A stretch of 64,000 bases of DNA from Squalus acanthias (taxonomy: Eukaryota), in contig JASTWF010000110.1 of the NCBI GenBank assembly GCA_030390025.1, positions 496,001-560,000 on the forward strand, in the 5' to 3' direction. A program made the position numbers and the translations under genes. The first letter of the stretch is position 1. Every line of letters starts with the position of its first letter. The notes beneath the pieces are model-generated. The model was given only the letters and a program-made list of their open reading frames with translations, did not search any database and was not told the origin of the DNA. Shown here piece by piece: positions 809 through 64,000 of this stretch.

Positions 809-1558
809 CCTCTGGAAGCAATGTTACTGTGAGTGTCGGTCAGAGAGAAGTGAATGGGACCGTGAACCAGTCTGTCCTTCTCCCCGTCTCCTACTCCACA
901 CCCACTCCCTAGTCCTCTTTAAAGATAGAGTGGAGTTTAATTCCCACAGACACTCCATTAGTGACATTGACCCGATCAAACTGCTCTCCAGACCCTGACA
1001 GACCCGGTTATACCTGTTCAGATTACCAGGTGTTCGCTCCTTCCCACAGGGGGAGAGTCCACATCTACCCAGAGAATGGATCCTTGTTGCTGCGGGATCT
1101 GCAGCCCAGTGACAGCGGCGTGTATGTGATATCTGTTTACAGTGATGGGGACACAACCAGTAAAGGCAATGTGACGTTAACAGTCTATCCCGGGACAGGT
1201 AGGAATTCACAGGCTGATTATTTAACCCATTTAACCCTCAGTGCCCTTTGCTGATAGAGGAACATTATTTAACTGTTACTGTACTTGTCGCTTCGAAACA
1301 AGCTGAATATTGCCAGCAAATTGATAAAGAATGATTAAAGTCTCTTTTTGAATATAATCGGGTTGTTGTAAATGATCACATTTTTGTTGCAGGCACTGAG
1401 AATCCTACCCCGAGCTGCACAGAGCAAGCGGAGACCACCAGACAACCCCCCGACCACCACCACCCGCTCTCCTGCTCCGTGTGGTCATCTTTGGCGCTGT
1501 CACTGTGCTCGGGGCCTGCCTGTACTTGTGTGTGAGGCGGAGATACCGAGCGAAATGA
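809..1558 (+). pseudogene. IgV activating-type receptor family, copy 1 (pseudogene): V exon 809-1198, stalk/TM exon 1393-1558; leader exon lies upstream of the window
   Basis: Canonical ag/gt splice sites and a 390-nt V exon. In-frame TAG at 910-912 (TAC in most paralogues). Also a +2 frameshift in the CAC repeat of exon 3 (166 nt vs 164). Confidence 0.88.
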
Positions 1559-1674
1559 CAGCGGGAGAACTCCACCTACACCCGGAGATCGCGATGTCCA
1601 GGGGTGGGCAACGGTTAGAGAATTCAATCAATCGGAGGTCCTGCTGGACGGCAATAACTTCCTTACAATGTTTC

Positions 1675-4637: not shown

Positions 4638-6591
4638 ATGTGCAGGGAAGTAAATCTCTTTAAATTCACCAACATTTACCCTCTCGTCATTTATTTTATT
4701 TCCCTCTCCGGTAAGTTGTTTTCTTTCACTTCCAGTATAAATGTTATTCTATTTCTGAGTTCCCTTTGACTCTGTGTGACTTCTGCTGACTGTGTTTAAT
4801 CAGGGCTGGGGTTCAATCGCTCACTGATCTAAAGTGAATGAAGCTCAGCTCATTCCCGGAGATCTTCAGTCTCATTCAGTCGGGCTCCTGTGAACAGGTA
4901 GATTCCCGCTCACCATCTGCCCTCCAGTTACTGTCAAACACTGTGAGTCACCTGAACCTCTAACTGTAGCTGGGACTTATTAATGAATGAACTGATCTCT
5001 CACAAGTCTTTAATTATTATTTATTAATGTGTCAGATATTCTCGTGTGTATGTTTTATCAAATGTGTAAAATTGGCGGATTCGATCAATTGGATTTCTAC
5101 CAAGTCTTTATTTAATGATTATAACATAGAATTACATACAATTTACAGCACAGAATAGGCCATTTGGCCAAACTGATCTAAGCCGGGGTTTATGCTTCTC
5201 GCGAGCCTGCCCACAATTTATTTACTTCACCTCATCCTAACAACATATCCTTCTATTCCTTTCTCCCTCATGTACTGATCCAGCTTCCCCTTAAATGAAT
5301 CCAGACTATTCACCTCAACTACTCCTTGTGGTAGCTCGTTCCGCATTCTCACCACTCTCTGGGTAAAAATGTTTCTGCTGAATTATTTTTTGGATTTATT
5401 AGAGACTATTTCATTACTAGCGTCTCAAACACTGTTATTATGATCGGGAACACATTGTCTGAAAGGCCGGTTGAAGCAGATTCAACAGTAAGCTTCAAAG
5501 GGGAATTGAATATAGACTTGAAAAGGAAAATTTGCTGGGCTATTGGGAAAGAGCGCGGGAGGGGGACTGATTGGATCGCTCATTCAAAGAGCTAGTACAC
5601 GCACGATGGGCCGAATGGCCTCCTTCCGTGCTGTATGAATCTCTGATTGTATAATTTCGTGCTCTCTGACTGGGCATTTTGTTTATTCTATCAAATTTAT
5701 TCTTTGTTGATGCTGCAGGTATTTTGTGATTTCAAACTCCTGGGATGCTTTATAACCAGAATTCTGAGTAAAGCCCTTTCTGAGGAATTCTGAGCTGTTT
5801 TTTTCCTTTCTGAAGCTGATTTATTGTTTGTATTTTGTTGCAGCCTCTGGAAGTAATGTTACTGTGAGCGTCGGTCAGAGAGAAGTGAAGGGGACCGTGA
5901 ACCAGTCTGTCCTTCTCCCCGTCTCCTACTCCACACCCACTCCCTACTCCACTTTAAAGATAGAATGGTTTTTATTCCCCGGAGACACTCCATTAGTGAC
6001 ACTGACCCGATCAAACTGCTCTCCAGACCCTGACAGACCCGGTTATACCTGTTCGGATTACCAGGTGTTCGCTCCTTCCCACAGGGGGAGAGTCCACATC
6101 TACCCAGAGAATGGATCCTTGTTGCTGCGGGATCTGGAGCCCAGTGACAGCGGCGTGTATGTGATATCTGTTTACAGTGATGGGGACACAACCAGGAAAG
6201 GCAATGTGACGTTAACAGTCTATCCCGGGACAGGTAGGAATTCACAGCCTGATTATTTAACCCATTTAACCCTCAGTGCCCTTTGCTGATAGAGGAACAT
6301 TATTTAACTGTTACTGTACTTGTCGCTTCGAAACAAGCTGAATATTGCCAGCAAATTGATAAAGAATGATTAAAGTCTCCTTTTGAATCTAATCGGTTTG
6401 TTGTAAATGATCACATTTTTGTTGCAGGCACTGAGAATCCTACCCCGAGCTGCACAGAGCAAGCGGAGACCACCAGACAACCCCCCGACCACCCACCCGC
6501 TCTCCTGCTCCGTGTGGTCATCTTTGGCGCTGTCACTGTGCTCGGGGCCTGCCTGTACTTGTGTGTGAGGCGGAGATACCGAGCGAAATGA
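4638..6591 (+). CDS. Single-IgV type I membrane receptor, copy 2, intact, 208 aa; exons 4638-4710, 5844-6233, 6428-6591
   Basis: Leader MCREVNLFKFTNIYPLVIYFISLS|gtaag. V exon ASGSNVTV...VLLPVSY...KIEWFLF...NCSPDPDRPGYTC...RVHIYPENGSLLLRDLEPSDSGVYVISV...NVTLTVYPGT. Exon 3 GTENPTPSCTEQAETTRQPPDHPPALLLRVVIFGAVTVLGACLYLCVRRRYRAK*. Both introns phase 1; 73+390+164=627 nt. Confidence 0.9.
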
Positions 6592-9988: not shown

Positions 9989-11941
9989 ATGTGCAGGGAA
10001 ATAAATCTCTTTAAATTCACCAACATTTTCCCTCTCATCGGTTATTTTATCACCCTCTCCGGTAAGTTGTTTTCTTTCACTTCCAGTATAAATGTAATTC
10101 TATTTCTGAGTTCCCTTTGACTCTGGGTGACTTCTGCTGACTGTGTTTAATCGGGGCTGGGTTTCAATCGCTCAATGATCTAAAGTGAATGAAGCTCAGC
10201 TCATTCCCGGAGATCTTCAGTCTCATTCAGTCGGGCTCCTGTGAACAGGTAGATTCCCGCTCACCATCTGCCCTCCAGTGACTGTCCCACACTGTGAGTC
10301 ACCTGAACCTCTAACTGTAGCTGGGACTTATTAATGAATGAACTGATCTCTCACAAGTCTTTAATTATTATTTATTAACGTGTCAGATATTCTCGTGTGT
10401 ATGTTTTATCAAATGTGTAAAATTGGCGGATTCGATCAATTGGATTTCTACCAAGTCATTATTTAATGATTATAACATAGAATTACATACAATTTACAGC
10501 ACAGAATAGGCCATTTGGCCAAACTTGTCTAAGCCGGGGTTTATGCTTCTCGCGAGCCTGCCCACAATTTATTTACTTCACCTCATCCTAACAACATATC
10601 CTTCTATTCCTTTCTCCCTCATGTACTGATCCAGCTTCCCCTTAAATGAATCCAGACTATTCACCTCAACTACTCCTTGTGGTAGCTCGTTCCGCATTCT
10701 CACCACTCTCTGGGTAAAAATGTTTCTGCTGAATTATTTTTTGGATTTATTAGAGACTATTTCATTACTAGCGTCTCAAACACTGTTATTATGATCGGGA
10801 ACACATTGTCTGAAAGGCCGGTTGAAGCAGATTCAACAGTAAGCTTCAAAGGGGAATTGAATATAGACTTGAAAAGGAAAATTTGCTGGGCTATTGGGAA
10901 AGAGCGCGGGAGGGGGACTGATTGGATCGCTCATTCAAAGAGCTAGTACACGCACGATGGGCCGAATGGCCTCCTTCCGTGCTGTATGAATCTCTGATTG
11001 TATAATTTCGTGCTCTCTGACTGGGCATTTTGTTTATTCTATCAAATTTATTCTTTGTTGATGCTGCAGGTATTTTGTGATTTCAAACTCCTGGGATGCT
11101 TTATAACCAGACTCCTGAGTAAAGCCCTTTCTGAGGAATTCTGAGCTGTTTTTTTCCTTTCTGAAGCTGATTTATTGTTTTAATTTGTTGCAGCCTCTGG
11201 AAGTAATGTTACTGTGAGCGTCGGTCAGAGAGAAGTGAATGGGACCGTGAACCAGTCTGTCCTTCTCCCCGTCTCCTACTCCACACCCACTCCCTGCTCC
11301 ACTTTAAAGATAGAATGGTTTTTATTCCCCGGAGACACTCCATTAGTGACACTGACCCGATCAAACTGCTCTCCAGACCCTGACAGACCCGGTTATAACT
11401 GTTCAGATTACCAGGTGTTCGCTCCTTCCCACAGGGGGAGAGTCCACATCTACCCAGAGAATGGATCCTTGTTGCTGCGGGATCTGGAGCCCAGTGACAG
11501 CGGCGTGTATGTGATATCTGTTTACAGTGATGGGGACACAACCAGGGAAGGGAATGTGACGTTAACAGTCTATCCCGGGACAGGTAGGAATTCACAGCCT
11601 GATTATTTAACCCATTTAACCCTCAGTGCCCTTTGCTGATAGAGGAACATTATTTAACTGTTACTGTACTTGTCGCTTCGAAACAAGCTGAATATTGCCA
11701 GCAAATTGATAAAGAATGATTAAAGTCTCCTTTTGAATATAATCGGTTTGTTGTCAATTATCACATTTTTGTTGCAGGCACTGAGAATCGTACCCCGAGC
11801 TGCACAGAGCAAGCGGAGACCACCAGACAACCCCACGACCACCCACCCGCTCTCCTGCTCCGTGTGCTCATCTTTGGCGCTGTCACTGTGCTCGGGGCCT
11901 GCCTGTACTTGTGTGTGAGGCGGAGATACCGAGCGAAATGA
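9989..11941 (+). CDS. Single-IgV receptor, copy 3, intact, 208 aa; exons 9989-10061, 11194-11583, 11778-11941
   Basis: Same exon lengths and splice sites; open frame throughout; TM ALLLRVLIFGAVTVLGACLYLCV; extra Cys in the BC loop (TPCST). Confidence 0.9.
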
Positions 11942-14040: not shown

Positions 14041-15988
14041 ATGTGCAGGGAAATAAATCTCTTTAAATTCACCAACATTTTCCCTCTCATCAATTATTTA
14101 ATCACCCTCTCCGGTAAGTTGTTTTCTTTCACTTCCAGTATAAATGTAATTCTATTTCTGAGTTCCCCCTGACTCTGTGTGACTTCTGCTGACTGTGTTT
14201 AATCGGGGCTGGGGTTCAATCGCTCACTGATCTAAAGTGAATGAAGCTCAGCTTATTCCCGGAGATCTTCAGTCTCATTCAATCGGGCTCCTGTGAACAG
14301 GTAGATTCCCGCTCACCATCTGCCCTCCAGTTACTGTCCCACACTGTGAGTTACCTGAACCTCTAACTGTAGCTGGGACTTATTAATGAATGAAACGATC
14401 TCCCACACGTCTTTAATTATTATTTATTAACGTGTCAGATATTCTCGTGTGTATGTTTTATCAAATGTGTAAAATTTGCGGATTGGATCAATTGATTTCT
14501 ACCAAGTCTTTATTTAATGATTATAACATAGAATTACATACAATGTACAGCACAGAATAGGCCATTTGGCCAAACTGGTCTAAGCCGGGTTTTATGCTTC
14601 TCGCGAGCCTGCCCACAATCTATTTACTTCACCTCACCCGAACAACATATCCTTCTATTTCTTTCTCCCTCATGTACTTATCCAGCTTCCCCTTAAATGC
14701 ATCTATACTATTCACCTCAACTACTCCTTGTGGTAGCTCGGTCCACATTCTCACCACTCTCTGGGTAAAAATGCTTCACCTGAATTCTTTTTTTGGATTT
14801 AATAGTGACTGTTTCATTACTAGCGTCTCAAATGCTGTTATTATGGTCTGGAACACATTGTCTGGAAGGGTGGTGGAAGCAGTTTCAACAGTGAGCTTCA
14901 AAGGGGAATAGACTTGGAAAGGAACATTTGCAGGGCTATTGGGAAAGAGCGGGGGAGTGGGACTGATTGGATCGCTCATTCACAGAGCTAGTACACGCAC
15001 GATGGGCCGAATGGCCTTCTTCTGTGCTGTATGAATCTCTGATTGTATAATTTCGTGCTCTCTGACTGGTCCTTTTGTTTATTCTGTCAAATTTATTCTT
15101 TGTTGATGCTGCAGGTATTTTGTAATTTGAAACTCCTGGGATGCTTTATAACCAGAATTCTGAGTAAAGCCCTTTCTGAGGAATTCTAAGCTGTTTTTTT
15201 TCCTTTCTGAAGCTGATTTATTGTTTTTATTTTGTTGCAGCCTCTGGAAGCCGTGTTACTGTGAGCGTCGGTCAGACAGAAGTGAAGGGGACCGTGAACC
15301 AGTCTGTCCTTCTCCCCGTCTCCTACTCCACACACACTCCCTACTCCACTTTAAAGATAGAGTGGACTTTATTCCCCGGAAATACTTCATTAGTGAGACT
15401 GACCCGAGCAAACTGCTCTCCAGACCCTGACAGACCCGGTTATAACTGTTCAGATTACCAGCTTGACGGTCCATCCCACACGGGGCGAGTCCACATCTAC
15501 CCAGAGAATGGATCCTTGTTGCTGCGGGATCTGGAGCCCAGTGACAGCGGCGTGTATGTGATATCTGTTTACAGTGATGGGGACACAACCAGGAAAGGCA
15601 ATGTGACGTTAACAGTCTATCCCGGGGCAGGTAGGAATTCACAGTCTGATTATTTAACCCATTTAACCCTCAGTGCCCTTTGCTGATAGAGGAACATTAT
15701 TTAACTGTTACTGTACTTGTCGCTTCGAAACAAGCTGAATATTGCCAGCAAATTGATAAAGAATGATTAAAGTCTCTTTTTGAATCTAATCGGGTTGTTG
15801 TAAATGATCACATTCTTGTTGCAGACACTGAGAATCCTATCCCGAGCTGCACAGTGCAAGCGGAGACCACCAGACAACCCCCCGACCACCCACCCGCTCT
15901 CCTGCTCCGTGTGGTCATCTTTGGCGCTGTCAGTGTGCTCGGGGCCTGCCTGTACTTGTGTGTGAGGCGGAGATACCGAGCGAAATGA
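14041..15988 (+). CDS. Single-IgV receptor, copy 4, intact, 208 aa; exons 14041-14113, 15241-15630, 15825-15988
   Basis: Kozak-like cACCATG, canonical splice sites, open frame; divergent face residues (EWTLFPGNTSLVRL, DYQLDGPSHTGRV). Confidence 0.9.
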
Positions 15989-18707: not shown

Positions 18708-21184
18708 TCATTTCGCTCGGTATCTCCGCCTCACACACAAGTACAGGCAGGCCCCGAGCACAGTGACAGCGCCAAAGATGACCACACGGAGCAGGAGAGC
18801 GGGTGGGTGGTCGGGGGGTTGTCTGGTGGTCTCCGCTTGCTTTGTGCAGCTCGGGGTAGGATTCTCAGAGTCTGCAACAAGCTTCTGATCATTTACAACA
18901 ACCCGATTAGATTCAAAAGGAGACTTTAATCATTCTTTATCAATTTGCTGGCAATATTCAGCTTGTTTTGAAGCGACAAGTACAGTAACAGTTAAATAAT
19001 GTTCCTCTATCAGCCAAGGACACTGAGGGTTAAATGGGTTAAATAATCAGACTGTGAATTCCTACCTGTCCCGGAATAGACTGTTAACGTCACATTGCCT
19101 TTAGTGGTTGAGTCCCCAGCACTGTAAACAGTTATCACATACACGCCGCTGTCACTGGGCTGCAGATCCCGCAGAAACAAGGATCCATTCTCTGGGTAGA
19201 TGTGGACTCTCCCCCTGTGGGAAGGAGTGAACCCCGAGTAATCTGAACAGTTATAACCGGGTCTGTCAGGGTCTGGAGAGCAGTTTGATCGGGTCAGTGT
19301 CACGAATGGAGTGTCTCCGGGGAATAAAAACCACCTTATATTTAAAGTGGAGACGGGGAGAAGGACAGACTGGTTCATGGTCCCCTTCACTTCTCTCTGA
19401 CCGACGCTCACAGTAACACGGCTTCCAGAGGCTGCAACAAAATAAAAACAATAAATCAGCTTCAGAAAGGAATAAAACAGCTTAGATTTCCTCAGAAAGG
19501 GTTTTACTCAGAAGTCTGGTTATAAAGCATCCCAGGAGTTTGAAATCACAAAATACCTGCAGCATCAACAAAGAATAAATTTGATAGAATAAACATAACG
19601 ACCAGTCAGAGAGCTTGAAATTATACAATCAGAGATTCATACAGCACAGAAGGAGGCCATTCGGCCAATCGTGCGTGTACTAGCTCTTTGAAAGAACTAC
19701 CCCATAAGTGCTAATTCCACGCCACTTCACAATAGCCCTCCAAATTTTCCTTTCCAAGTCTATAGTCAATTCCCCTTTGAAGTTACTGTTGAAACTCCTT
19801 CCACCGCCCTTTCAGACAATGTGTTCCAGACCATAATAACAGCATTTGAGACATTAGTAATGAAATAGTCACTAATAAATCCAAAAAATAATTCAGGAGA
19901 AACATTTTTACCCAGAGAGTGGTGAGAATGTGGAACGAGCTACCACAAGGAGTAGTTGAGGTGATTAGTCTGGATGCATTTAAGGGGAAGCTGGATCAGT
20001 ACATGAGGGAGAAAGGAATAGAAGGATATGTTGTTAGGGTGAGGTGAAGTAAATAGATTGTGGGCAGGCTCGCGAGGAACATAAAACCCGGCTTAGACCA
20101 GTTTGGCCAAATGGCCTATTCTGTGCTGTAAATTGTATGTCATTCTATGTTATAATCATTAAATAATGACTTGGTAGAAATCAATTGATCCAATCCGCCA
20201 ATTTTACACAATTGATAAAACATACACACGAGAATATCTGACACATTAATAAATAAATAATAATTAATGACTTGTGGGAGATCGGTTCTTTCATTAATAA
20301 GTCCCAGTCTAGAGTTAGAGGTTCAGGTAACTCACAGTGTGGGACAGTAACTGGAGGGCAGATGGTGAGCGGGAATTTACCTGTTCACAGGAGCCTGAAT
20401 GAATGAGACTGAAGATCTCAGGGAATGAGTTGAGCTTCATTCACTTTAGATCATGATGCGGAGAATACTTCAGCAGTCAAGGACATTCAGCCTCGGATCT
20501 GCGGGTTAGCGTTCTCCAAGGCGGCCTTCGAGACACACAACAATGCAAAATCATCGAGCAGAAACTGATAACCAAGTTCCGCACCCATGAGGATGGCCTC
20601 AATAGGGATATCGGGTTCATGTGATGATATAGAACGTGACTCGACATCGTTGTCTGTCTTTCCAGTTTTTTTTAAAAAACACAAAAAAAACAAACCAAAA
20701 AAACACAAAAAATAAAAGTTAAAAGCTCAACTGTAGACAGCAGGATTTGACACGTTGGACCCCCAGTGTCCCATCTCATTATCTTGGCTGTGCTCTGGTG
20801 TGTCTTTGATGTAAGGCCTCCCTGAAAGATTGTATCTCTGCAGACAAATTGATTTTTGTGTTTATATACAGTGTAATATTGTAGATTCCTTCATTGTACC
20901 TGTACCTGACGAAGGGGCAACAGCTCCGAAAGCTTGTAATTTAAAAAAAATCTGTTGGACTATAACCTGGTATTGTGCGACTTCTCACTTTAGATCAGTG
21001 AGCGATTGAACCCCAGCCCCGATTAAACACAGTCAGCAGAAGTCACACAGAGTCAGGGGGAACTCAGAAATAGAATTACATTTATACTGGAAGTGAAAGA
21101 AAACAACTTACCGGAGAGGAAAATAAAATAACTGATGAGAGGGAAATTGTTGGTGAATTTAAAGAGATTTATTTCCCTGCACAT
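18708..21184 (-). CDS. Single-IgV receptor, copy 5, intact, 200 aa with an 8-aa BC-loop deletion; exons 21184-21112, 19431-19066, 18871-18708
   Basis: Canonical splice sites; V exon 366 nt (in-frame loss of YSTPTPYS); TM Arg retained; Penelope fragment in intron 1. Confidence 0.85.
20454..20984 (+). mobile_element. 5'-truncated Penelope-like element (GIY-YIG endonuclease C-terminus, 3' UTR, hammerhead-bearing terminus) in intron 1 of copy 5
   Basis: Encodes EYFSSQGHSASDLRVSVLQGGLRDTQQCKIIEQKLITKFRTHEDGLNRDIGFM*. Flanked by the direct repeat tcactttagatca (20441-20453, 20985-20997). Confidence 0.82.
20900..20940 (+). ncRNA. Minimal type I hammerhead ribozyme motif of a Penelope-like element
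   Basis: UAC-CUGACGA-A-GGGGC aaca GCUCC-GAAAGCU-U-GUA: core boxes, helix II, palindromic helix III and UAC/GUA helix I. Confidence 0.65.
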
Positions 21185-24798: not shown

Positions 24799-25397
24799 CC
24801 CATGGGAATTCCAGTCACCTGTCCTTTTCCTTAACAGATACGAACTGTTTATTCCCAGCATTCTCTGTTCCTATAATGGATGAGAATAGATAATGCAAAA
24901 TGGAGGGACAAAATACAGTAGATTCCATAGGCTGGTCATCTGGTCATTGAGGCAACCGCCCGAGATATCTGCACTCCTCTAATTCCGGTCTCTTGAGCAT
25001 CCCAGATTTTAATCTCTCCACCATTGGCGGCCGTGCCTTCAGCTGCCGAAGGCCCCAAGCTCAGGAATTCCCTCCCTAAACCTCTCCACCTCACCACCTC
25101 TCTCTCCATCTTTAAGTCGCTCCTTAAAACCTACCTCTTTGACCAAGCTTTCGGTCATCAGCCCTAATATCTCCTGATGTGGCTCGGTGTCAAATTTTGT
25201 TTTATAAAACTCCTGTGAAGCGCCTTGGTACGTTTCACTACGTTAAGGGCGCTGTATAAACACAAGTTATTGTTGTTGTTGAAACATTGTAAGGAAGTTA
25301 TTGCCGGTCCAGCAGGGATTCCGATTGATTGAATTCTCCAACCGTTGCCCACTCCTGGACATCGCGATCTCCGGGTGTAGGTGGAGTTCTCCCGCTG

Positions 25398-27346
25398 TCA
25401 TTTCGCTCGGTATCTCCGCCTCACACACAAGTACAGGCAAGCCCCGAGCACAGTGACAGCGCCAAAGATGACCACACGGAGCAGGAGAGCGGGTGGGTGG
25501 TCGGGGGGTCTCTGGTGGTCTCCGCTCGCTCTGTGCAGCTCGGGGTAGGATTCTCAGTGTCTGCAACAAGAATGTGATCATTTACAACAACCCGATTACA
25601 TTCAAAAGGAGACTGTTAATCATTCTTTATCAATTTGTTGGCAATATTCAGCTTGTTTCGAAGCGACAAGTACAGTAATAGTTAAATAATGTTCCTCTAA
25701 CAGAAAGAGCACTGAGAGTTAAATGGGTTAAATTATCAATCTGTGAATTCCTACCTGTCCCGGGATAGACTGTTAACGTCACATTGCCTTTACTGGTTGT
25801 GTCCCCAGCACTGTAAACAGATATCACATACACGCCGCTGTCACTGGGCTGCAGATCCCGCAGCAACAAGGATCCATTCTCTGGGTAGATGTGGACTCGC
25901 CCCGTGTGGGAAGTAGTGTCCCGCTGGATACTGAACAGTTATAACCGGGTGTGTCAGGGTCTGGAGAGCAGTTTGATCGGGTCAGTGTCACTAATGAAAT
26001 GTCTCCGGGGAATAAAACCCACTCTATCTTTAAAGTGGAGTAGGGAGTGAGTGTGGAGTAGGAGACGGGGAGAAGGACAGACTGGTTCACGGTCCCCTTC
26101 ACTTCTCTCTGACCGACGCTCACAGTAACACGGCTTCCAGAGGCTGCAACAAATTAAAACAATAAATCAATTTCAGAAAGGACAATAAAAAGCTTCGAAT
26201 TCCTTAGAAATTGTTTTACTCAGGAGTCTGGTTATAAAGCAGCCCAGGAGTTTGGTGGAATAAATATAAGGACCAGTCAGAGAGCATGAAATTATACAAT
26301 CAGAGATTCATACATCACAGAAGGAGGCCATTCGGCCCATTGCGCTTGTGCCGGCACTTTGAATGAGTGATCCAATCAGTCCCACTCCCCCACACTTTCC
26401 CAATAGCCCTGCAAATAATTTCCTTTCCAAGTATATATTCAATTCCCCTTTGAAGTTTACTGTTGAATCTGCTTCCACCGCCCATTCAGACAATGTGTTT
26501 CAGACCATAATAACAGTATTTGAGACGTTAGTAAATAAATAGTGAGTAATAAATCCAAAAAAATAGAATTCAGGAGAAACATTTTTACCCAGAGAGTGGT
26601 GAGAATGTGGAACTCACTGTCACAAGGAATAGTTGAGGTGAATAGTATAGATGCATTTAAGGGGAAACTAGAGGGAGAAAAAAGTAGAAGGATATGTTGT
26701 TAGGGTGAGGTGAAGTACATAGATTGTGGGGAGGCTCGCGAGGAGCATAAACACAGGCTAAGACCAGTTTGGCCAAATGGCCTATTCTGTGCTGTAAATT
26801 GTATGTAATTCTATGTCTTAATCATTAAATAAAGACTTGGTAGAAATCAATTGATCCAATCCGCCAATTTTACACATTTGATAAAACATACACGCGAGAA
26901 TATCTGACACATAAATAAGTAAATAATAATTAAAGACTTGTGAGAGGTCAGTTCGTTCATTAATAAGTCCCAGCTACAGTTAGAGGTTCAGGTAACTCAC
27001 AGTGTAAGTCCCAGCTACAGTTAGAGGTTCAGGTAACTCACAGTGTCGAACAGTCACTGGAGGGCAGATGGTGAGCGGGAATCTACCTGTTCACAGGAGC
27101 CCGACTGAATGAGACTGAAGATCTCAGGGAATGAGCTGAGCTTCATTCACTTTAGATCAGTGAGCGATTGAACCCCAGTCCCGATTAAACACAGTCAGCA
27201 GAAGTCACACAGAGTCAAAGGGAACTCAGAAATAGAATCACATTTATACTGGCAGTGAAAGAAAACAACTTACCGGAGAGGGAAATAAAATAATTGATGA
27301 GAGGGAAAATTTTGATGAATTTAAAGAGATTTATTTCCCTGCACAT
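25398..27346 (-). pseudogene. IgV receptor copy 6 (pseudogene); exons 27346-27274, 26143-25755, 25560-25398
   Basis: V exon 389 nt (-1 frameshift near 25930, just after the second Cys); exon 3 163 nt (-1 frameshift in the stalk). Confidence 0.87.
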
Positions 27347-30127: not shown

Positions 30128-31683
30128 CTGTCCCGGGATAGACTGTTAACGTCACATTGCCTTTCCTGGTTGTGTTCCCATCACTGTAAACAGATATCAC
30201 ATACACGCCGCTGTCACTGGGCTGCAGATCCCGCAGCAACAAGGATCCATTCTCTGGGTAGATGTGGACTCTCTCACTGTGGGAAGGAGCGAACCCCCGG
30301 TAATCTGAACAGTTATAACCGGGTCTGTCAGGGTCTGGAGAGCAGTTTGATCGGGTCAGTATCACTAATGGACTGTCTCCGGCGATTAAACCCCAGTCTA
30401 TCTTTAAAATCGAGTAGGGAGTGGGTGTGGAATAGGAGACAGTGAGAAGGACAGACTGGTTCACGGTCCCCTTCACTGCTCTCTGACCGACGCTCACAGT
30501 AACACGGCTTCCAGAGGCTGCAATAAAATAAAAACAATAAATCAGCTTCAGAAAGGAAAAAAAAAACACCTTAGAATTGCTTAGAAAGGGTTTTACTCAG
30601 GAGTCTGGTTACGAAGCATTCGAGGTGTTTGAAATCACAAAATACCTGCAGCATCTACAAAGAACAAAATTATAAAGAATAAACATAACGACGAGTCAGA
30701 GAGCATGAAATTATACAATCAGAGATTGATACAGCATAGAAGGAGGCCATTCGGCCCATTCTGCGTGTACTAGCTCTTTGAAAGATCGATCCAATCTCCC
30801 TCTTTCCCAATAGCCTTTCAAATCTTTCCGTTTGAAGTCTGTATTCAATTCCCCTTTGAAGCTCACTGTTGAAACTGCTTCCATTGCCATTTTAGACAAT
30901 GTGTTCCAGACCATAATAACAGCATTTGAGACGGTAGTAATTAAATAGTCTCTAATAAATACAAAAAAATAGAAATCAGGAGTAACATTTTTACCCAGAG
31001 AGTGGTGAGAAGGTGGAAGGAGCTACCACAAGGAATAGTTGAGGTGAATAGTATAGATGCATTTAAGGGGAAGCTGGATAAATACATGAGGGAGAAAGGA
31101 ATAGAAGGATATGTTGTTCGGGTGAGGTGAAGTAAATAGATTGTGGGCAGGCTCGTGAGGAGCATAAACCCCGGTTTAGACCAGTTTGGTCAAATGGCCT
31201 ATTCTGTGCTGTAAATTCTATGGTAGAGATCAATTGTACAATCCGCCAATTTTACACATTTGATAAAACATACACACGAGAATATCTGACACATTAATAA
31301 ATAATAAATAAAGACTTGTGAGAGATCAGTTCATTCATTAATAAGTCCCAGTTACAGTTAGAGGTTCAGGTAACTCACAGTGTCGGACAGTAACTGGAGG
31401 GCAGATGGTGAGCGGGAATCTACCTGTTCACAGGAGCCCGACTGAATGAGACTGAAGGTCTGAGGGAATGAGCCGAGCTTCATTCACTTTAGATCAGTGA
31501 GCGATTGAACCCCAGCCCCGATTAAACACAGTCAGCAGAAGTCACACAGAGTCAAGGGGAACTCAGAAATAGAATTACATTTATACTAGAAGTGAAAGAA
31601 AACAACTTAACGGAGAGGGAAATAAAATAACTGCTGAGAGGGAAATTGTTGGAGAATTTAAAGAGATTTATTTCCCTGCACAT
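30128..31683 (-). pseudogene. IgV receptor copy 7 (probable pseudogene): leader 31683-31611 with donor GT>TT, open V exon 30517-30128, TM exon deleted
   Basis: Leader is followed by ttaag instead of gtaag. Intron 2 joins directly to the L2 tail at ~29950, so exon 3 is absent. Confidence 0.83.
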
Positions 31684-35602: not shown

Positions 35603-37500
35603 TCATTTCGCTCGGTATCTCCGCCTCACACACAAGTACAGGCAGGTCCCGAGCACAGTGGCAGCGCCAAAGATGACCACACGGAGCAGGGGAGCGGCTG
35701 GTGGGTGTTCGGGGGGTTGTCTGGTGGTCTCCGCTTGCTCTGTGCAGCTCGGGGTAGGATTCTCAGTGCCTGCAACAAGAATGTGATCATTTACAACAAC
35801 CCGATTAGATTCAAAAGGAGACTGTTAATCATTCTTTGTCAATTTGCTGGCAATATTCAATTTGTTTCGAAGCGACAAGTACAGTAACAGTTAAATAATG
35901 ATCCTCTAACAGAAAGAGCACTGAGGGTTAAATGGTTTAAATAATCAGCCTGTGAATTCCTACCTGTCCCGGAATAGACTGCTAACGTAACATTGCCTTT
36001 ACTGGTTGTGTCCCCATCACTGTAAACAGATATCACATACACGCCGCTGTCACTGGGCTGCAGATCCCGCAGCAACAAGGATCCATTCTCTGGGTAGATG
36101 TGGACTCTCCCCCTGTGGGAAGGATTGTCCCGCTGGTAATCTGAACAGGTATAACCGGGTCTGTCAGGGTCTGGAGAGCAGTTTGATCGGGTCAGTATCA
36201 CTAATGGAGTGTCTCCGGGGAATAAAACCCAGTCTATCTTTAAAGTGGAGTAGGGAGTGAGTGTGGAGTAGGAGACGGGGAGAAGGACAAACTGGTTCAC
36301 GGTCCCCTTCACTTCTCTCTGACATCCGATCACAGTAACATTGCTTCCAGAGGCTGCAACAAATTAAAACAATAAATCAGTTTCAGAAAGGACAAAAAAA
36401 AGCTTCGAATTCCTTAGAAAGGGTTTTACTCAGGAGTCTGGTTATAAAGCAGCCCAGGAGTTTGGTGGAATAAATATAAGGACCAGTCAGAGAGCATGAA
36501 ATTATACAATCAGAGATTCATACAGCACAGAAGGAGGCCATTCGGCCCATTGTGCCTGTGCCGGCTCTTTGAATGAGCAATCCAATCAGTCCCACTCCCC
36601 CGCTCTTTCCCAATAGCCCTGCAAATACTTTCCTTTCCAAGTCTATATTCAATTCCCCATTGAAGTTTACTGTTGAATCTGCTTCCACCGCCCTTTCAGA
36701 CAATGTGTTCCAGATCATAATAACAGTATTTGAGACGTTAGTAATTAAATAGTGAGTAATAAATCCAAAAAATAATTCAGGAGAAACATTTTTACCCAGA
36801 GACTGGTGAGAATGTGGAACTCACTGTCACAAGGAGTAGTTGAGGTGAATAGTATAGATGCATTTAAGGGGAAACTAGATAAATACATGAGGGAGAAAAA
36901 AGTAGAAGGATATGTTGTTAGGGTGAGGTGAAGTACATAGATTGTGGGGAGGCTAAGACCAGTTTGGCCAAATGGCATCTTCTGTAATGTAAATTGTATG
37001 TAATTCTATGTCTTAATCATTAAGTAAAGAGTTCATAGAGATCAATTGATCCAATCTGCCAATTTTACACATTTAATAAAACATACACGCGAGAATATCT
37101 GACACATAAATAAAAAAATAATAATTAAAGACTTGTGAGAGATGACTTCATTCATTAATAAGTCCCAGCTACAGTCAGAGGTTCAGGTAACTCACAGTGT
37201 GGGGCAGTAACTGGAGTGCAGATGGTGAGCGGGAATCAACCTGTTCACAGGAGCCCGACTGAATGAGACTGAAGATCTCAGGGAACGAGTTGAGCTTCAT
37301 TCACTTTAGATCAGTGAGCGATTGAACCCCAGCCCCGATTAAAGACAGTCTGCAGAAGTCACACAGAGTCAAGGGGAACTCAGAAATAGAATTACATTTA
37401 TACTGGAAGTGAAAGAAAACAACTTACCGGAGAGGAAAATAAAATAATTGATGAAAGGGAAAATTTTGATGAATTTAAAGAGATTTATTTCCCTGCACAT
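35603..37500 (-). CDS. Single-IgV receptor, copy 8, intact, 209 aa; exons 37500-37428, 36353-35964, 35769-35603
   Basis: Canonical splice sites; exons of 73, 390 and 167 nt; TM APLLRVVIFGAATVLGTCLYLCV, tail RRRYRAK*. Confidence 0.9.
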
Positions 37501-42484: not shown

Positions 42485-42648
42485 TCATTTCGCTCGGTAT
42501 CTCCGCCTCACACACAAGTACAGGCAGGTCCCGAGCACAGTGACAGCGCCAAAGATGACCACACAGAGCAGGAGAGCGGGTGGGTGGTCGGGGAGTTGTC
42601 TGGTGGTCTCCGCTCGCTCTGTGCAGCTCGGGGTAGGATTCTCAGTGT
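42485..42648 (-). pseudogene. Orphan stalk/TM exon (copy 9); acceptor, V exon and leader lost at an inversion breakpoint; TM Arg>Cys
   Basis: 164-nt exon-3 homologue. Its 5' edge joins directly to plus-strand intron-1 sequence (gtgtaaaattgg). CGT>TGT at the TM Arg codon. Confidence 0.85.
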
Positions 42649-44426: not shown

Positions 44427-45172
44427 CCTCTGGAAGCCGTGTTACTGTGAGTGTCGGTCAGAGAGAAGTGAAGGGGACCGTGAACCAGTCTGTCCTTCTC
44501 CCCGTCTCCTACTCCACACCCACTCCCTACTCCACTTTAAGGATAGAGTGGGGTTTAATCCCCACAGACACTCCATTAGTGACACTGACCCGATCAAACT
44601 GCTCTCCAGACCCTGACAGACCCGGTTATAACTGTTCGGATTACCGGGGGTTCGCTCCTTCCCACACGGGGAGAGTCCACATCTACCCAGAGAATGGATC
44701 CTTGTTGCTGCGGGATCTGGAGCCCAGTGACAGCGGCGTGTATGTGATATCTGCTTACAGTGCTGGGGCACAACCAGTAAAGGCAATGTGACGTTAACAG
44801 TCTATCCCGGGACAGGTAGGAATTCACAGGCTGATTATTTAAACCATTTAACCCTCAGTGCTCTTTCTGTTAGAGGAACATTATTTAACTGTTACTGTAC
44901 TTGTCGCTTCGAAACAAGCTGAATATTGCAAATTGATAAAGAATGATTAACAGTCTCCTTTTGAATCTAATCGGGCTGATGTAAATGATCAGATTCTTGT
45001 TGCAGGCACTGAGAATCCTACCCCGAGCTGCACAGAGCAAGCGGAGACCACCAGACAACCCCCCGACCACCACCCACCCGCTCTCCTGCTCCGCGTGGTC
45101 CTCTTTGGCGCTGTCAGTGTGCTCGGGGCCTGCCTGTACTTGGGTGTGAGGCGGAGATACCGAGCGAAATGA
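44427..45172 (+). pseudogene. IgV receptor copy 10 (pseudogene inside an inverted segment): V exon 44427-44815, TM exon 45006-45172
   Basis: V exon 389 nt (-1 at ~44769, GCTGGGGCACAA). No in-orientation leader upstream because intron 1 is truncated at ~42645. Confidence 0.86.
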
Positions 45173-48770: not shown

Positions 48771-48842
48771 CGGAGAGGGTTTAAAATAACTGATGAAACG
48801 CAAAATGTTGGTGAATTTAAAGAGATTTATTTCTCTGCACAT
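48771..48842 (-). pseudogene. Orphan leader exon (probably belonging originally to copy 10), 72 nt, 1-nt deletion
   Basis: ATGTGCAGAGAAATAAATCTC...CCCTCTCCG|gtaag. Its intron breaks at ~48385, almost exactly where the inverted intron-1 piece at 42645 begins. Confidence 0.8.
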
Positions 48843-49669: not shown

Positions 49670-52600
49670 GTGAAATGTGTATTGATGTTAATCCAGCTCC
49701 CCCACACTGTCACTCAGAACTCCTTGCTCCGCACCGTGTTACTGACAGTATCTGTACTGATGTTAATCCATCTCCAACATGCTGTCACTCAGTAAACCCT
49801 CCTCAAGTCTCCTGTGTTACTGACTGTATCTGTAATGAGGTTAGTCCAGCTCCCTCACACTGCCACTCAGTAACCCCTTCCTCAGCACACTGTGTCACTG
49901 ACTGTATCTGTACTGATGTTAATCCAGCTCCCTCACACTGTCACTCAGTAACCCCTCCCCCAGAACCCTGTGTCACTGACTGTATCTGTACTAATGTTAA
50001 TCCAGCTCCCTCACACTGTCACTCAGTAACCCCTCCCCCAGCACCCTATATTACTGACTGTATCTGTACTAATGTTAATCCAGCTCCCTCACACTGTCAC
50101 TCAGTAACCACTCCCCCAGCACCCTGTATCACTGACTGTATCTGTACTGATGTTAATCCAGCTCCCTCACACTGTCACTCGGTAACCCTTCCGCCCAGCC
50201 CCCTGTGTTACTGACTGTATCTGTACTGATGTTAATCCAGCTCCAACACACTGTCACTCAGTAACCCTTCCGACCAGCCCCCTGTGTTACTGACTGTAGC
50301 TGTACTGACATTAAACCAACTCCCTCACACTGAACTAAGTATCCACACACCCCAGCCTCCTGTGTCACTGATTTTATCTGTACTGATGTTAATCCAGCTC
50401 CCCCACACTGTCACTCATTAACCCCTCTCCCCCCAGCACCCTGTTTCGCTGACTGTATCTGTAATGATATTAATCCAGCTCCCTCACACTGTCACTCAGT
50501 AACACATCTCCCAGTCCCCTTTTTCGCTGACTTTATCTGTACTGATGTTAATCCAGCTTCCTCACACTGTCACTCAGTAACCCCTCTCACCCAGCTCCAT
50601 GTATTACTGACTGTATCTGTACTGATGTTATTCCAGCTCCCTCAGACTGTCACTCAGAAACCCCTCCCCCAGCACCGTATCACTGACTGTATCTGTACTG
50701 ATGTTAATCCAGCTCCCTCACACTGTCACTCAGTAACCCCTCTCCCCCAGCCCCCTGTGCTACTGACTGTATCTGTACTGATGTTAATCCAGCTCTCTCA
50801 CATTGTCACTCAGTAACCCCTCCCCCCAGTCCCCTGTGTCACTGACTGTATCTCTACTGATGTTAATCCAGCTCCCTCACGCTGTCACTTAGTAACTCCT
50901 CCCCCAGCACCCTGTGTCACTGACTGTATCTGCACTGACATTCAACCAGCTCCTTCACACTGTCACACAGTAACCCATCCACCCAGCCCCCTGTGTTACA
51001 GACTGTATCTGTACTGATGTTAATCCAGCTTCCTCACACGGTCACTCAGTAACCCCTCTCCCCCAGCTCCCTGTATTACTGACTGTATCTGTACTGATGT
51101 TATTCCAGCTCCCTCACACTGTCACTCAGAAACCCCTCCCCCAGCACCGTGTCACTGACTGTATCTTTACTGATGTTAATCCAGCTCCCTCACACTGTCA
51201 CTCAGTAATCCCTCTCCCCCAGCACCCTGTGCTACTGACTGTATCTGTACTGATGTTAATCCAGCTCTCTCATATTGTCACTCAGTAACCCCTCCCCCAG
51301 CACCCTGTGTCACTGACTGTATCTGTACTGATGTTAATCCAGCTCCCTCACACTGTCACTTAGTCACCCCTCCCCCCAGCTCCCTCTGTCACTGACTGTA
51401 TCTTTACTGATGTTAGTCCAGCTCCCTCACACTGCCACTCAGTAACCCCTCTCCCCCCAGCACCCTCTGTCACTGACTGTATCTGTACTGATGTTAATCC
51501 AGCTCCCTCACACTGTCACTCAGTAACCCCTCCCCCCAGCACCCTGTGTCACTGACTGTATCTGTACTGATGTTAAACCAGCTCCCTCATACTGTCACTC
51601 AGTAACCCAACCCCCCAGCACCCTGTGTTACTGACTGTATCTGTACTAATGTTAATCCAGCTCCCTCACAGAGTCACTCAGTAACTCCTCCCCAGCTCCC
51701 ATTGACACTGACTGTATCTTTACTGATGTTAATCCAGCTCCCTCACTCTGTCACTCAGTAACCTCTCCCCCCAGCACCCTGTGTCACTGACTGTATCTGT
51801 ACTGATGTTAATCCAGCTCCCTCACAGAGTCACTCAGTAACTCCTCCCCCAGCTCCCATTGACACTGACTGTATCTTTACTGATGTTAATCCAGCTCCCT
51901 CACTCTGTCACTCAGTAACCTCTCCCCCCAGCTCCCTTTGACACTGACTGTATCTTTACTGATGTTAATCTAGCTCCCTCACACTGTCACTCAGTAACCA
52001 CTCCCCCAGCACCCTGTGTTACTGACTGTATCTTTACTGATGTTAATCCAGCTCCCTCACACTGCCACTCAGTAAATCCTCTCCCCCCAGCACCCTCTGT
52101 CACTGACTGTATCTGTACTGATGTTAATCCAGCTCCCTCACACTGTCACTCAGTAACCCCTCCCCAGCACCCTGTGTCACTGACTGTACCTGTACTGATG
52201 TTAATCCTGCTCCCTCACACTTTCACTCAGTAACCCCTCTCACAGTCCACTTTGTCACTGACTGTATCTGTAATGATGTTAATCCAGCTCCCTCACACAT
52301 TCGCTCAGTAACACCACCCCAGCACTCTGTGCTACTGACTATATCTGTACTGATGTAAATCCTGCTCTCTCAAACTGTCACTCAGTAACTCTTCCACCCA
52401 GCCCCCTGTGTTACTGACTGTATCTGTACTGATTTTAATCCAGCTCCCTCACACTGTTACTCAATAATCCCTCCCCAACACCCTGTGTCACTGACTTTAT
52501 CTGTACTAATATTAATCCAGCTCCCTCACACTGTCACTCAGTAACCCCTCTCTCAGTCCCCTTTGTCACTGACTGTATCTGTATTGAAGTTAATCCAGCT

Positions 52601-53630
52601 CCCTCACACTTTCACTCAGTAACCCCTCTCCCCCAGCACCCCGTGTTACTGACTGTATCTGTACTGATGTTAATCCAGCTCCCTCACACTTTCACTCAGT
52701 AACCCCTCCTCCAGCACCCTGTGTCACTGACTGTATCTGTACTGATGTTAATCCAGCTCCCTCACACTATCACTCATTAACCTCTCCCTCCAATGTCCTG
52801 TGTCACTGACTGTATCTGTACTGCTGTTAATCCAACTCCCTCACACTGTCACTCAGTAAACCCTCCCCACAGCCCCCTGTGTTACTGACTGTATCTGTAC
52901 TGACATTAAATCAGCTCCTTCACACTGTCACTCAGTAACCCCATCCCCAGCGCCCTGTGTTACTGACTGAATCTGTACTGATGTTAATCCAGCTCCCTCA
53001 CACTGTCACTCAATAACCCCTTGCCCCAGCGCCCTGTGTCACTGACTGAATCTGTACTGATGTTAATCCAGCTCCCTCACACTGTCACTCAATAACCCCT
53101 TGCCCCAGCGCCCTGTGTCACTGACTGTATCTGTACTGATGTTAATCCAGCTCCCTCACACTGTCACTCAGTAACACCTCTCCGAGTGCCCTGTGTTACT
53201 GACTGTATCTGTACTGATCCTAATTCAGCTCCCTCACCCTGTCACTCAGTAACAGCTCTACCAGTCCCCTGTGTTACTGTCTGTATCTGTACTGATGTTA
53301 ATTCAGCTCCCCCACACTGTCACTCAGTAACACCTCTCCGAGTGCCCTGTGTTACTGACTGTATCTGTACTGATGTTAATTCAGCTCCCCCACACTGTCA
53401 CTCAGTAACACCTCTCCCAGTCACCTGTGTTACTGACTATCTGTACTGATGTTAATCCAAGTCCCTCACACTGTCACTTAGTAACCCCTCACCCTCCAGC
53501 CCCCTGTGTCACTGACTGTATCTGTACTGACATTAAACCAGCTGCCTCTCACTTTTACTCAGTAACCCCTCCCCCAGCACCCTGTGCTACTCACTGTATC
53601 TTTAGTTATTTTAATCCAGCTCTTTTCCAG
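49670..53630. repeat. Tandem satellite, ~78-80-bp unit, about 50 copies
   Basis: Consensus actgactgtatctgtactgatgttaatccagctccctcacactgtcactcagtaacccctcccccagcaccctgtgtc. Confidence 0.95.
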
Positions 53631-56300: not shown

Positions 56301-57139
56301 GACTGTAAGAGTTGCCGCTCCCCAGTTATCATGGCCGGTTCCTTACTCCTGGCGCAATGTAGGTAGGCAGTGTGTGTGTGTTATTATAACAGGCTCGGTT
56401 TTTATCAAGTCACGGTTGTGGTGGGCAGCCTCACCCGCGGGAGCAAAGATTGGGAAATTGTGGGCGCTTCCTCCCGAATCTTCCAACAGGCGGTCCCGGC
56501 AGACAAGACTCCCCACCAGCAGCCCAGGTGTGTAAAATCGGCCGTCGCCTTGCAAACTGATGTGAGGTCAGCTGTGCTGGCACTGTTTACATCGTACGTG
56601 TGCAATAATCTGGTCCTCCCAACACTTCCACAATATACAGAAGGCCTGATTCACTCCTCCGACAATGCGAATGAATGGGGCAATGCTCGCCAACCGTTGT
56701 TTTCACCGCATGCCGGCAATAACCAGAACAAGCTAACTCGTGACCAGCAGCAACAGTTTCAGCCAGACTCCTCCTCCCTTCTCCATTTCTAGTTTAAATG
56801 AATCCCAACTGCTGTCCGTTTAAAGAAAAGGAAAGAGAGAGAGTTGCATTTATATAGCGCCTTTCACGACCTCAGGACGTCCCAAGCGCTTCACAGCCAA
56901 TGAAGCACTTCTGAAGTGCAGTCACTGTTGTTATTTTCTGCACTTTATTCTATTAACTTCAAACATGTCAACACATCCCTCCATTAGATGGCGAGCAAGA
57001 GCAATTATTTCTGAAGAGCTTTCTCACAGTATCATTGATTTAAAGGGAAGGGTACATATATTTTATTGATTTAAAGGGAATGATGCAAATGTAAATGATA
57101 TAAATGGTGTGGAATGAGGGGAATGATACAGAGGGAGGG

Positions 57140-63100: not shown

Positions 63101-64000
63101 AGGGCTCAGTTTGTGTTATGGAGTGAGGGGAGTGTTGGTGTTATGGAGTGAGGAGATAGTTTGTGTTATGGAGTGAGGGGACAGTTTGTGTTATGGAGTG
63201 AGGGGACAGTTTGTGTTATGGAGTGAGGGGAGTGTTTGTGTTATGGAGTGAGGGGACAGTTTGTGTTGTGGAGTGAGGGATCAGTTTGTGTTATGGAGTG
63301 AAGGGGCTAGTTGGTGTTCTGGAGTGAGGGGACAGTTTGTTTTATGGAGTGAGGGGACAGTTTGTGTTATGGAGTGAGGGGACAGTTTGTGTTATGGAGT
63401 GAGGGGAGTGTTTGTGTTATGGAGTGAGGGATCAGTTTGTGTTATGGAGTGAAGGGGCTAGTTGGTGTAATGGAGTGAGGGGACAGTTTGTGTTATGGAG
63501 TGAGGGGACAGTTTGTGTTATGGAGTGAGGGGATGGTTTGTGTTATGGAGTGAGGGATCAGTTTGTGTTATGGAGTGAAGGATCAGTTTGTGTTATGGAG
63601 TGAGGGGACAGTTTGTGTTATGGAGTGAGGGATCAGTTTGTGTTATGGAGTGAGGGATCAGTTTGTGTTATGGAGTGAGGGGACAGTTTGTGTTGTGGAG
63701 TGAGGGGACAGTTTGTTTTATGGAGTGAGGGGACAGTTTGTGTTATGGAGTGAGGGGATAGTTTGTGTTATGGAGTGAGGGATCAGTTTGTGTTGTGGAG
63801 TGAGGGGACAGTTTGTCTTATGGAGTGAGGGATCAGTTTGTGTTATGGAGTGAGGGATCAGTTTGTGTTATGGAGTGAGGGGACAGTTTGTGTTATGGAG
63901 TAAGAGGACAGTTTGTGTTATGGAGTGAGGGATCAGTTTGTGTTATGGAGTGAGGGGACAGTTTGTGTTATGGAGTGAGGGATCAGTTTGTGTTATGGAG
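57140..64000. repeat. G-rich minisatellite, 25-bp unit ggagtgaggggacagtttgtgttat, roughly 270 copies, runs off the window end
   Basis: Direct reading; variant units (gggatc, ggggagt, aaggggct) recur in higher-order blocks. Confidence 0.97.

Follow-up and report, generated by a model that had tools for sequence, protein, structure and literature searches.

A gene-converting array of single-IgV receptor genes in Squalus acanthias with diversity concentrated on the predicted CC'C'' edge

The stretch of Squalus acanthias DNA that was analysed (64,000 nucleotides, referred to as the window; assembly GCA_030390025.1, contig JASTWF010000110.1, positions 496,001–560,000 of the forward strand) contains an array of related genes which extends from position 809 to position 48842 in both orientations and comprises nine V exons, nine exon-3 copies and eight leader exons (Table 1). 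The nine V exons are 88–98% identical to copy 2. Four of the nine V-bearing copies are intact (copies 2, 3, 4, and 8; copy 2 codes for 208 amino acids) and the other five (copies 1, 5, 6, 7, and 10) carry lesions. These lesions were called from the assembled sequence; the deletion in copy 10 adjoins a G run, yet this copy is also severed from its leader exon. Within the 64-kb window no neighbouring genes were identified, and a search with eight query proteins found no ITIM exons.

Table 1. Features of the array in the window. Codons of the V exon are numbered as in copy 2, where codon n begins at position 5846+3(n−1).
Feature	Position	Strand	Remarks
Copy 1, exons 2–3	809..1567	+	leader beyond the window; TAG at V codon 34; frameshift in exon 3
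Copy 2, exon 1, leader peptide	4638..4710	+	24 codons; phase-1 donor GTAAGT; resembles the N-termini of annotated shark relatives
Copy 2, exon 2, IgV without B–F cysteines	5844..6233	+	Pfam V-set E=1.7e-10; AlphaFold2 pLDDT 90.1; splice sites
Variable patch 1: C strand, CC' loop, C' strand	5954..6013	+	codons 37–56; includes E40, F42, T52
Predicted Cys58–Cys69 pair closing the extended C'–C'' hairpin	6017..6052	+	pi 0.025 at the tip; nearly invariant among copies
Variable patch 2: C'' strand and C''–D turn	6059..6088	+	codons 72–81; Q73, V74, A76, R80; pi 0.19; posterior above 0.9 in most fits
Conserved scaffold: D, E, start of F	6089..6166	+	codons 82–107; pi 0.015; includes R82, D101
End of F, FG loop, start of G	6167..6202	+	codons 108–119; neutral-level diversity only
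Copy 2, exon 3, stalk, TM helix, tail and stop	6428..6591	+	TM Arg codon 6511–6513
Copy 3	9989..11941	+	intact, 208 aa
Copy 4	14041..15988	+	intact, 208 aa
Copy 5	18708..21184	−	open frame of 200 aa; 24-nt deletion takes out most of strand B
Copy 6	25389..27346	−	two 1-nt deletions, one each in exon 2 and exon 3
Copy 7	30128..31683	−	V exon open; exon-1 donor TTAAGT (GT>TT); no TM exon
Copy 8	35603..37500	−	intact, 209 aa
Copy 9, exon 3 alone	42485..42648	−	no acceptor; TM Arg replaced by Cys
Copy 10, exons 2–3	44427..45172	+	1-nt deletion at V codon 114; no in-line leader exon
Orphan leader exon	48771..48842	−	1-nt deletion; orientation opposite to that of copy 10

Copy 2 has three exons with canonical phase-1 splice sites, coding for the leader, the IgV domain, and the stalk with transmembrane (TM) segment and tail. 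Intron 2 has 194 nt and is followed by the stalk/TM exon; there is neither a C2 domain exon nor a second Ig exon. The cytoplasmic tail consists of the seven residues RRRYRAK before the stop codon and contains neither an ITIM nor an ITAM. The TM segment reads ALLLR and thus has the Arg of the NxxR motif and lacks its Asn. This Arg is found in 6 of the 7 in-frame exon-3 copies, with Cys in copy 9. Exon 3 of copy 2 shares 67% identity with the corresponding part of the catshark protein P0008 (E=4e-14), and the nearest proteins are from sharks, namely Scyliorhinus torazame (80%) and Heterodontus (74%).

Several further features of the array were observed. In the leader exon, the 3' half (4668–4710 and equivalents) is unusually variable among the copies (pi 0.138, surpassed by 7 of 94 non-coding windows). 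Intron 1 contains at 5108–5715 high-copy repeat fragments with very deep read cover in four runs, and this is also the site of the most diverse non-coding windows. Among the listed matches of these four runs there was no splice joint, which is neutral with regard to expression. For copy 7 (30128–31683) a secreted form is conceivable only via another donor. The intact copies 3 and 8 each have an extra unpaired Cys, at V codon 34 (11295–11297) and V codon 10 (36322–36324), respectively, which could lead to dimerisation or to misfolding. Copy 9, copy 10 and the orphan leader lie between 42485 and 48931 as fragments that do not all point the same way, which would fit inversions that broke two genes. 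A tandem array of a 78-bp unit (49678–53622, 50 copies, 85% matches) lies directly past the cluster's last leader exon, and a 25-bp satellite of at least 274 copies (57131–64000) runs off the end of the window.

From an alignment of 65 sequences AlphaFold2 predicts a V-set domain (pLDDT 90.1), in which the strands are C (37–44), C' (49–60), C'' (67–75), F (103–111), and G (115–126). Strands B and F have no Cys, so that the B–F pair is missing; R82 is present in at least 90% of the sequences aligned for the family and D101 is invariant. Two other cysteines are conserved, C69 in 65 of 65 sequences and C58 in 90% or more. In the model they face each other across the C'C'' hairpin and probably form a disulfide bond. 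Two further positions of the A1 alignment show a different pattern of cysteines: at position 53, on C', most bird relatives have an additional conserved Cys where sharks have Leu, and position 73 is often Cys in the bird relatives and a variable residue in sharks.

Database searches gave 80, 23, and 172 proteins (the best 120 of the 172 were listed) from sharks, rays, a salamander, turtles, and many birds. The listed relatives are almost all annotated as "uncharacterized" or "HEPACAM-like", and among the single-domain matches listed there is no mammal. Among 1.84 billion representatives, a profile search found 89 matches with E no higher than 1e-30; it also brought out a broader group of unnamed proteins with a single V domain. 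In the openly accessible literature that was searched we found no description of the family, which may go by a different name elsewhere. Of 20 elasmobranch relatives, 15 have an ITIM-like motif in the tail, four have a TM segment of the Arg type and one has no tyrosine motif. In birds, long forms that have motifs of the ITSM and ITIM types (TIYARI, VVYTTI) occur together with short forms at adjacent locus numbers; an Arg near the start of the TM segment is also present in some bird ITIM forms. Long and short forms of the same species have matched V domains, which differ at 2, 9, and 10 positions in three sharks and at 4–19 positions in six birds (∼129 columns); these nine pairs come from the species of the relatives and not from the Squalus acanthias window. 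For paired receptors it is described in parts of PMC3210942 and PMC5112662 that the ligand-binding domains of the opposing forms are homogenised. As the ITIM forms have counterparts with a short tail and a TM Arg whose V domains match theirs, the array looks like the activating arm of a paired-receptor family. Apart from these relatives, the proteins P0035, P0077, P0139, and P0172–P0268 have one or two V domains without B–F cysteines and several of them NxxR-like TM segments; they point to additional related receptor families.

Several known receptor systems resemble the array in part. The CEACAM1/CEACAM3-type receptors of mammals, Xenopus, and reptiles share the V domain without a B–F disulfide, the Arg–Asp pair (here R82 and D101), an ITIM partner with matched V domain, gene conversion and nonsynonymous changes on the CC'C''FG sheet. 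The absence of the B–F cysteines and the Arg–Asp salt bridge in the CEACAM N domain are set out in a passage of PMC4079198. The best sequence matches to solved structures are also CEACAMs (profile E=7e-8, single sequence E 6e-4 or weaker), with the match confined to residues 66–127, that is about strands D–G. On the contrary, activating CEACAMs signal through a cytoplasmic ITAM-like motif, whereas here the tail RRRYRAK is followed by a stop codon and an Arg is present in the TM segment instead. The array further differs from the CEACAMs by the additional predicted C58–C69 hairpin, the lack of IgC domains and a conserved F/G half. Section 11 of PMC13278318 states that chicken and duck have no complete CEACAM gene, and full-length relatives of our family were found in chicken, ducks, geese, and pheasant. 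Membership in the CEACAM family was rejected on three grounds: the missing ITAM-like tail, the similarity only about strands D–G and the intact relatives in chicken and duck. The initial annotation had likened the copies to pathogen-sensing decoys such as CEACAM3. This comparison holds for the way of working, as an activating partner of an ITIM receptor, and not for membership in the family.

The NxxR-TM receptors (LILRA2, PIR-A, NKp46, GPVI, OSCAR, Fc-alpha-R, ggFcR, and the Xenopus XFL and SLAM members) likewise have a short tail without tyrosine motifs and an Arg close to the outer end of their TM segment. These receptors have an Asn three residues before the Arg, which is absent here, and C2-type domains in place of the single V domain; some of the more distant unnamed relatives do have NxxR. 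An Arg at the start of the TM segment is named as a mark of FcR-gamma-associated receptors in parts of PMC2413239 and PMC4536121. By predicted structure VSTM5 and HEPACAM are the nearest named clusters (TM 0.77), "HEPACAM-like" being an automated label on some of the relatives. However, HEPACAM has a second Ig domain, for which no exon is present here, the VSTM5 clusters have a VSTM5_C region, which is absent from the precomputed domain annotations of the relatives listed, and in contrast to both our genes are multi-copy, paired and fast-evolving. A feature search in the ESM Atlas gave generic V-set clusters only.

The CD2/SLAM receptors have a V domain which lacks the canonical disulfide, and their ectodomain consists of this V domain plus a C2 domain. 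They resemble the array in this V domain and in the GFCC'C'' binding face, with CD48 and CD58 as fold matches (Z 13–14), and the bird long forms share the TxYxxI motif. Nevertheless, in the array there is no C2 exon, the predicted disulfide hairpin is long and the sequence similarity is weak (CD48, E=0.055). The best fold match is the V1 domain of amphioxus VCBP3 (Z 17.0, rmsd 2.4 over 124 residues, 21% identity; Foldseek TM 0.81), the next unrelated match having Z 15.5. This match is probably due to the long C'C'' extension, and on the basis of the model both domains would have only the shape in common. VCBPs are polymorphic V-type immune genes with two V domains together with a chitin-binding domain, unlike the single V domain and TM segment encoded here. 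Multiplication of activating paralogues, their conversion and the diversification of the ligand face are already known from CEACAM, LILR/PIR, KIR, and NKG2. What appears to be new is the family itself, in which the canonical disulfide has been lost and a long pinned C'C'' hairpin is predicted.

The initial annotation stated that the diversity of the copies concentrates on the predicted GFCC'C'' ligand face. The segments it quoted (nine for C/C', six following the Cys, and those of FG) agree with the sequence copy by copy, except that QRDT, although present in the sequence, had been read out of frame; the segments it called invariant, RVHIYPENGSL (codons 82–92) and DSGVYVI (codons 101–107), have no amino acid change in nine of nine copies. 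For a quantitative comparison the codons were divided into four classes, which were defined after the alignment had been seen and in which outward and inward facing residues were assigned by the strand register (W41, Y105, and I107 inward) and not by computed accessibility. With this division 15 of 17 codons of the CC'C'' face, 5 of 12 codons of the F/G face including the FG loop, 23 of 67 codons of the other surface, and 3 of 33 core codons vary in their amino acid, the difference between the CC'C'' face and the other surface being significant (Fisher p=7e-5). None of 1,415 neutral simulations had 29 or more nonsynonymous changes on the 17 CC'C'' codons. The non-coding sequence has a mean pi of 0.075 (94 windows), and windows of 30 nt reach 0.13–0.17 in C/C' and 0.18–0.19 in C'', i.e. 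∼2–2.5 times this value, and are surpassed by 1–7 of the 94 non-coding windows. Codon 42 (5969–5971) encodes five different residues (S, F, T, V, G) with T as third base in nine of nine copies. The FG region has 0.42 nonsynonymous changes per codon, compared with 0.45 on the other surface, and a pi of 0.06–0.07. Thus, the claim stands for C, CC', C', and C'' and fails for F/G: together with the per-segment trees described below, these values rule out the whole GFCC'C'' face as the variable surface. Switching of N-glycan sequons was likewise rejected as a target of selection, as 5 of 62 residue variants alter a sequon where 9.5% are expected (p=0.72).

Selection on the V exons was assessed with GY94 site models in our own implementation, with branch lengths scaled from M0 and NEB posteriors. 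Omega was 1.9 under M0. Comparison of M1a and M2a gave a LRT of 45.3 with 15% of the sites at omega 9.3; the values for M7/M8 and M8a/M8 were 45.3 and 45.2. When double and triple hits were allowed, the LRT was 33.4 and the double-hit rate was estimated above zero. Testing omega above 1 against a class with faster mutation at both synonymous and nonsynonymous sites gave 18.6 and 16.6.

Gene conversion among the copies is real and has to be taken into account here. The copies are mosaics, for example copy 1 groups with copy 10 in C/C' and with copies 2 and 3 in C''. In addition, 180 of 351 informative site pairs are incompatible, and PHI is significant on alignments of 1.1–1.8 kb with or without exon 2 (0–39 of 2,000 permutations); on exon 2 alone it is not significant (p 0.18–0.75). 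In simulations of neutral or nearly neutral recombining copies the threshold of 5.99 was exceeded in 8/20, 5/22, 14/17, 9/17, and 12/13 runs (48 of 89 in total), and we therefore do not trust the nominal chi-square p-values of the site tests. In the same pipeline the observed LRT is 39.7, a value which was attained in 0/20, 0/22, 1/17, 0/17, and 1/13 runs (2 of 89). With a separate tree for each segment the LRT was 39.5/30.7 for two parts, 16.3/12.0 for four and 11.7/10.6 for six parts, significant in six of six fits. In these fits F42, A76, and R80 have a posterior above 0.9 six times out of six and V74 five times, and D112 and R117, which had been flagged on the single tree, were mostly dropped. 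Flagged sites off the face are N4, P31, T68, and E98; by the strand register V74 points away from the side of Q73 and F75.

Tests which do not use a tree lead in the same direction. The 21 codons with at least two changes hold 42 nonsynonymous and 8 synonymous changes (42 N:8 S), a count which is class-free and hence independent of the post-hoc definition of the face. This fraction was attained in 21/415, 4/328, 0/364, 4/352, and 0/372 neutral runs (null p 0–0.05), the last two nulls having fourfold mutation patches placed on the observed patches. By class, the tree-free counts are 29 N:4 S for the CC'C'' face (p=0.054), 3 N:6 S for the core, and 30 N:6 S for the other surface. The surface outside the face is hence about neutral or above, and constraint is weak overall. 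Most of the signal comes from the five broken copies (LRT 22.9; face 23 N:1 S, p=0.008; core 2 N:4 S). As their cores are still conserved, their diversity presumably arose while the genes were alive. The four intact copies on their own are not significant: their LRT of 10.7 falls to 5.2 with double hits (p=0.07), and their counts for the face are 13 N:3 S (p=0.39). Among relatives, the variability per site correlates with the entropy in 14 other elasmobranch sequences (Spearman 0.43; 0.40 for the surface only) and in 39 bird relatives (0.32 and 0.26, respectively), and in both sets the variability of the CC'C'' class exceeds that of the other surface (p=0.004 and p=0.0001). As exposed sites vary anyway, this correlation is supportive and no proof. 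Taken together, positive selection at a subset of the face residues, in CC'C'' and the C''–D turn, is likely but not airtight. The positive selection proposed in the initial annotation withstands the controls for double hits, mutation hotspots and per-segment trees and the tree-free test, with the reservations that conversion inflates the site test and that the intact copies alone do not reach significance, and its extent is reduced from the entire GFCC'C'' face to this region.

Thus, we suggest, with a probability of about 0.6, that the locus is a young converting array of likely activating single-IgV receptors whose CC'C'' edge was diversified by selection on binding, most likely of microbial ligands. 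According to the model the V domain would bind via its CC'C'' edge. By analogy with the NxxR receptors, and although the Asn is absent, the TM Arg would recruit an ITAM adaptor of the FcR-gamma type. Duplication and conversion would reshuffle the C/C' and C'' patches between the copies, selection would retain new combinations, and copies no longer useful would die in a process of birth and death. The conserved F/G half might have a fixed job, either as core ligand contact or in packing, while the CC'C'' edge would tune the specificity. As in other paired systems, the ligands could be microbial and also engage the ITIM-bearing partner. A turnover of specificities by duplication, conversion and loss is reported for paired receptors in parts of PMC3210942 and PMC5112662. 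A broader proposal, which we put forward tentatively, is that of a paired family with the age of the jawed vertebrates which uses a VCBP-like pinned C'C'' hairpin as a pathogen sensor, and from which this shark would build a germline repertoire of activating sensors by conversion of C/C'–C'' cassettes.

The copies might instead track a polymorphic host ligand (MHC-like, stress-induced, or a glycan) or serve homo- or heterophilic cell recognition in the manner of KIR/Ly49 or CD2/SLAM, and not detect microbes directly. The equivalent face of the CEACAMs binds endogenous ligands (section 13 of PMC13278318 and parts of PMC4079198), the nearest named folds are V domains of the adhesion type (VSTM5, HEPACAM, CD48), and a conserved F/G half would suit a conserved host contact. 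However, the rapid gain and loss of activating copies usually marks pathogen pressure, as parts of PMC5112662 have it, and no candidate host ligand was found; we consider host recognition rather unlikely.

It is also unlikely, in our judgement, that the omega above 1 is an artefact of a decaying array, produced by relaxed or neutral evolution together with patchwork conversion and multi-base mutations. Such an origin would be in line with five broken copies out of nine and a tenth that is a fragment, with the site incompatibilities and the significant PHI, with the two neutral runs out of 89 that attained the observed LRT, with the lack of significance in the intact copies and with the double-hit rate above zero. 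On the other hand, the core is under purifying selection even in the broken copies, the changes in the hot codons lie at positions 1–2 rather than 3 (37 versus 12 extra letters) with the third base of F42 constant, and the equivalent sites are variable in other sharks and in birds. Moreover, heterogeneity and the excess of nonsynonymous changes occurred together in just 4 of 1,831 neutral runs. Least probable to us is that selection acted on an ITIM partner elsewhere in the genome and that the array is a passive archive of its V-exon alleles acquired by conversion: V domains are near-identical in long and short forms of the same species, exon-restricted conversion between such partners is documented in a part of PMC5112662, motifs of single copies recur in ITIM forms of other sharks (copy 4 and P0011, for instance, both have DGP following C''), and, as a weak point, 6085–6233 is matched with three differences by a contig from another organism's run, possibly of RNA, which beyond this goes over into other sequence, but the ITIM partner is absent from the window and the flanking introns are as alike among the copies as the V exon, so that whole-gene duplication accounts for the likeness without a donor.

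If selection for binding via the CC'C'' edge is the correct reading, a paired innate receptor system would be added to those of cartilaginous fish and birds, and E40, F42, T52, Q73, V74, A76, and R80 would be the residues to mutate. The chicken and duck genes would then offer a tractable route to the ligand, and chicken LOC771657, for which the literature search returned 0 papers, would make the family directly testable. In duck and chicken, the gene models P0001, P0002, and P0032, one of which is labelled CEACAM5-like, contain two or more V domains in tandem; they may stem from a comparable tandem array whose genes were merged in the models, and may reflect an independent expansion in waterfowl.
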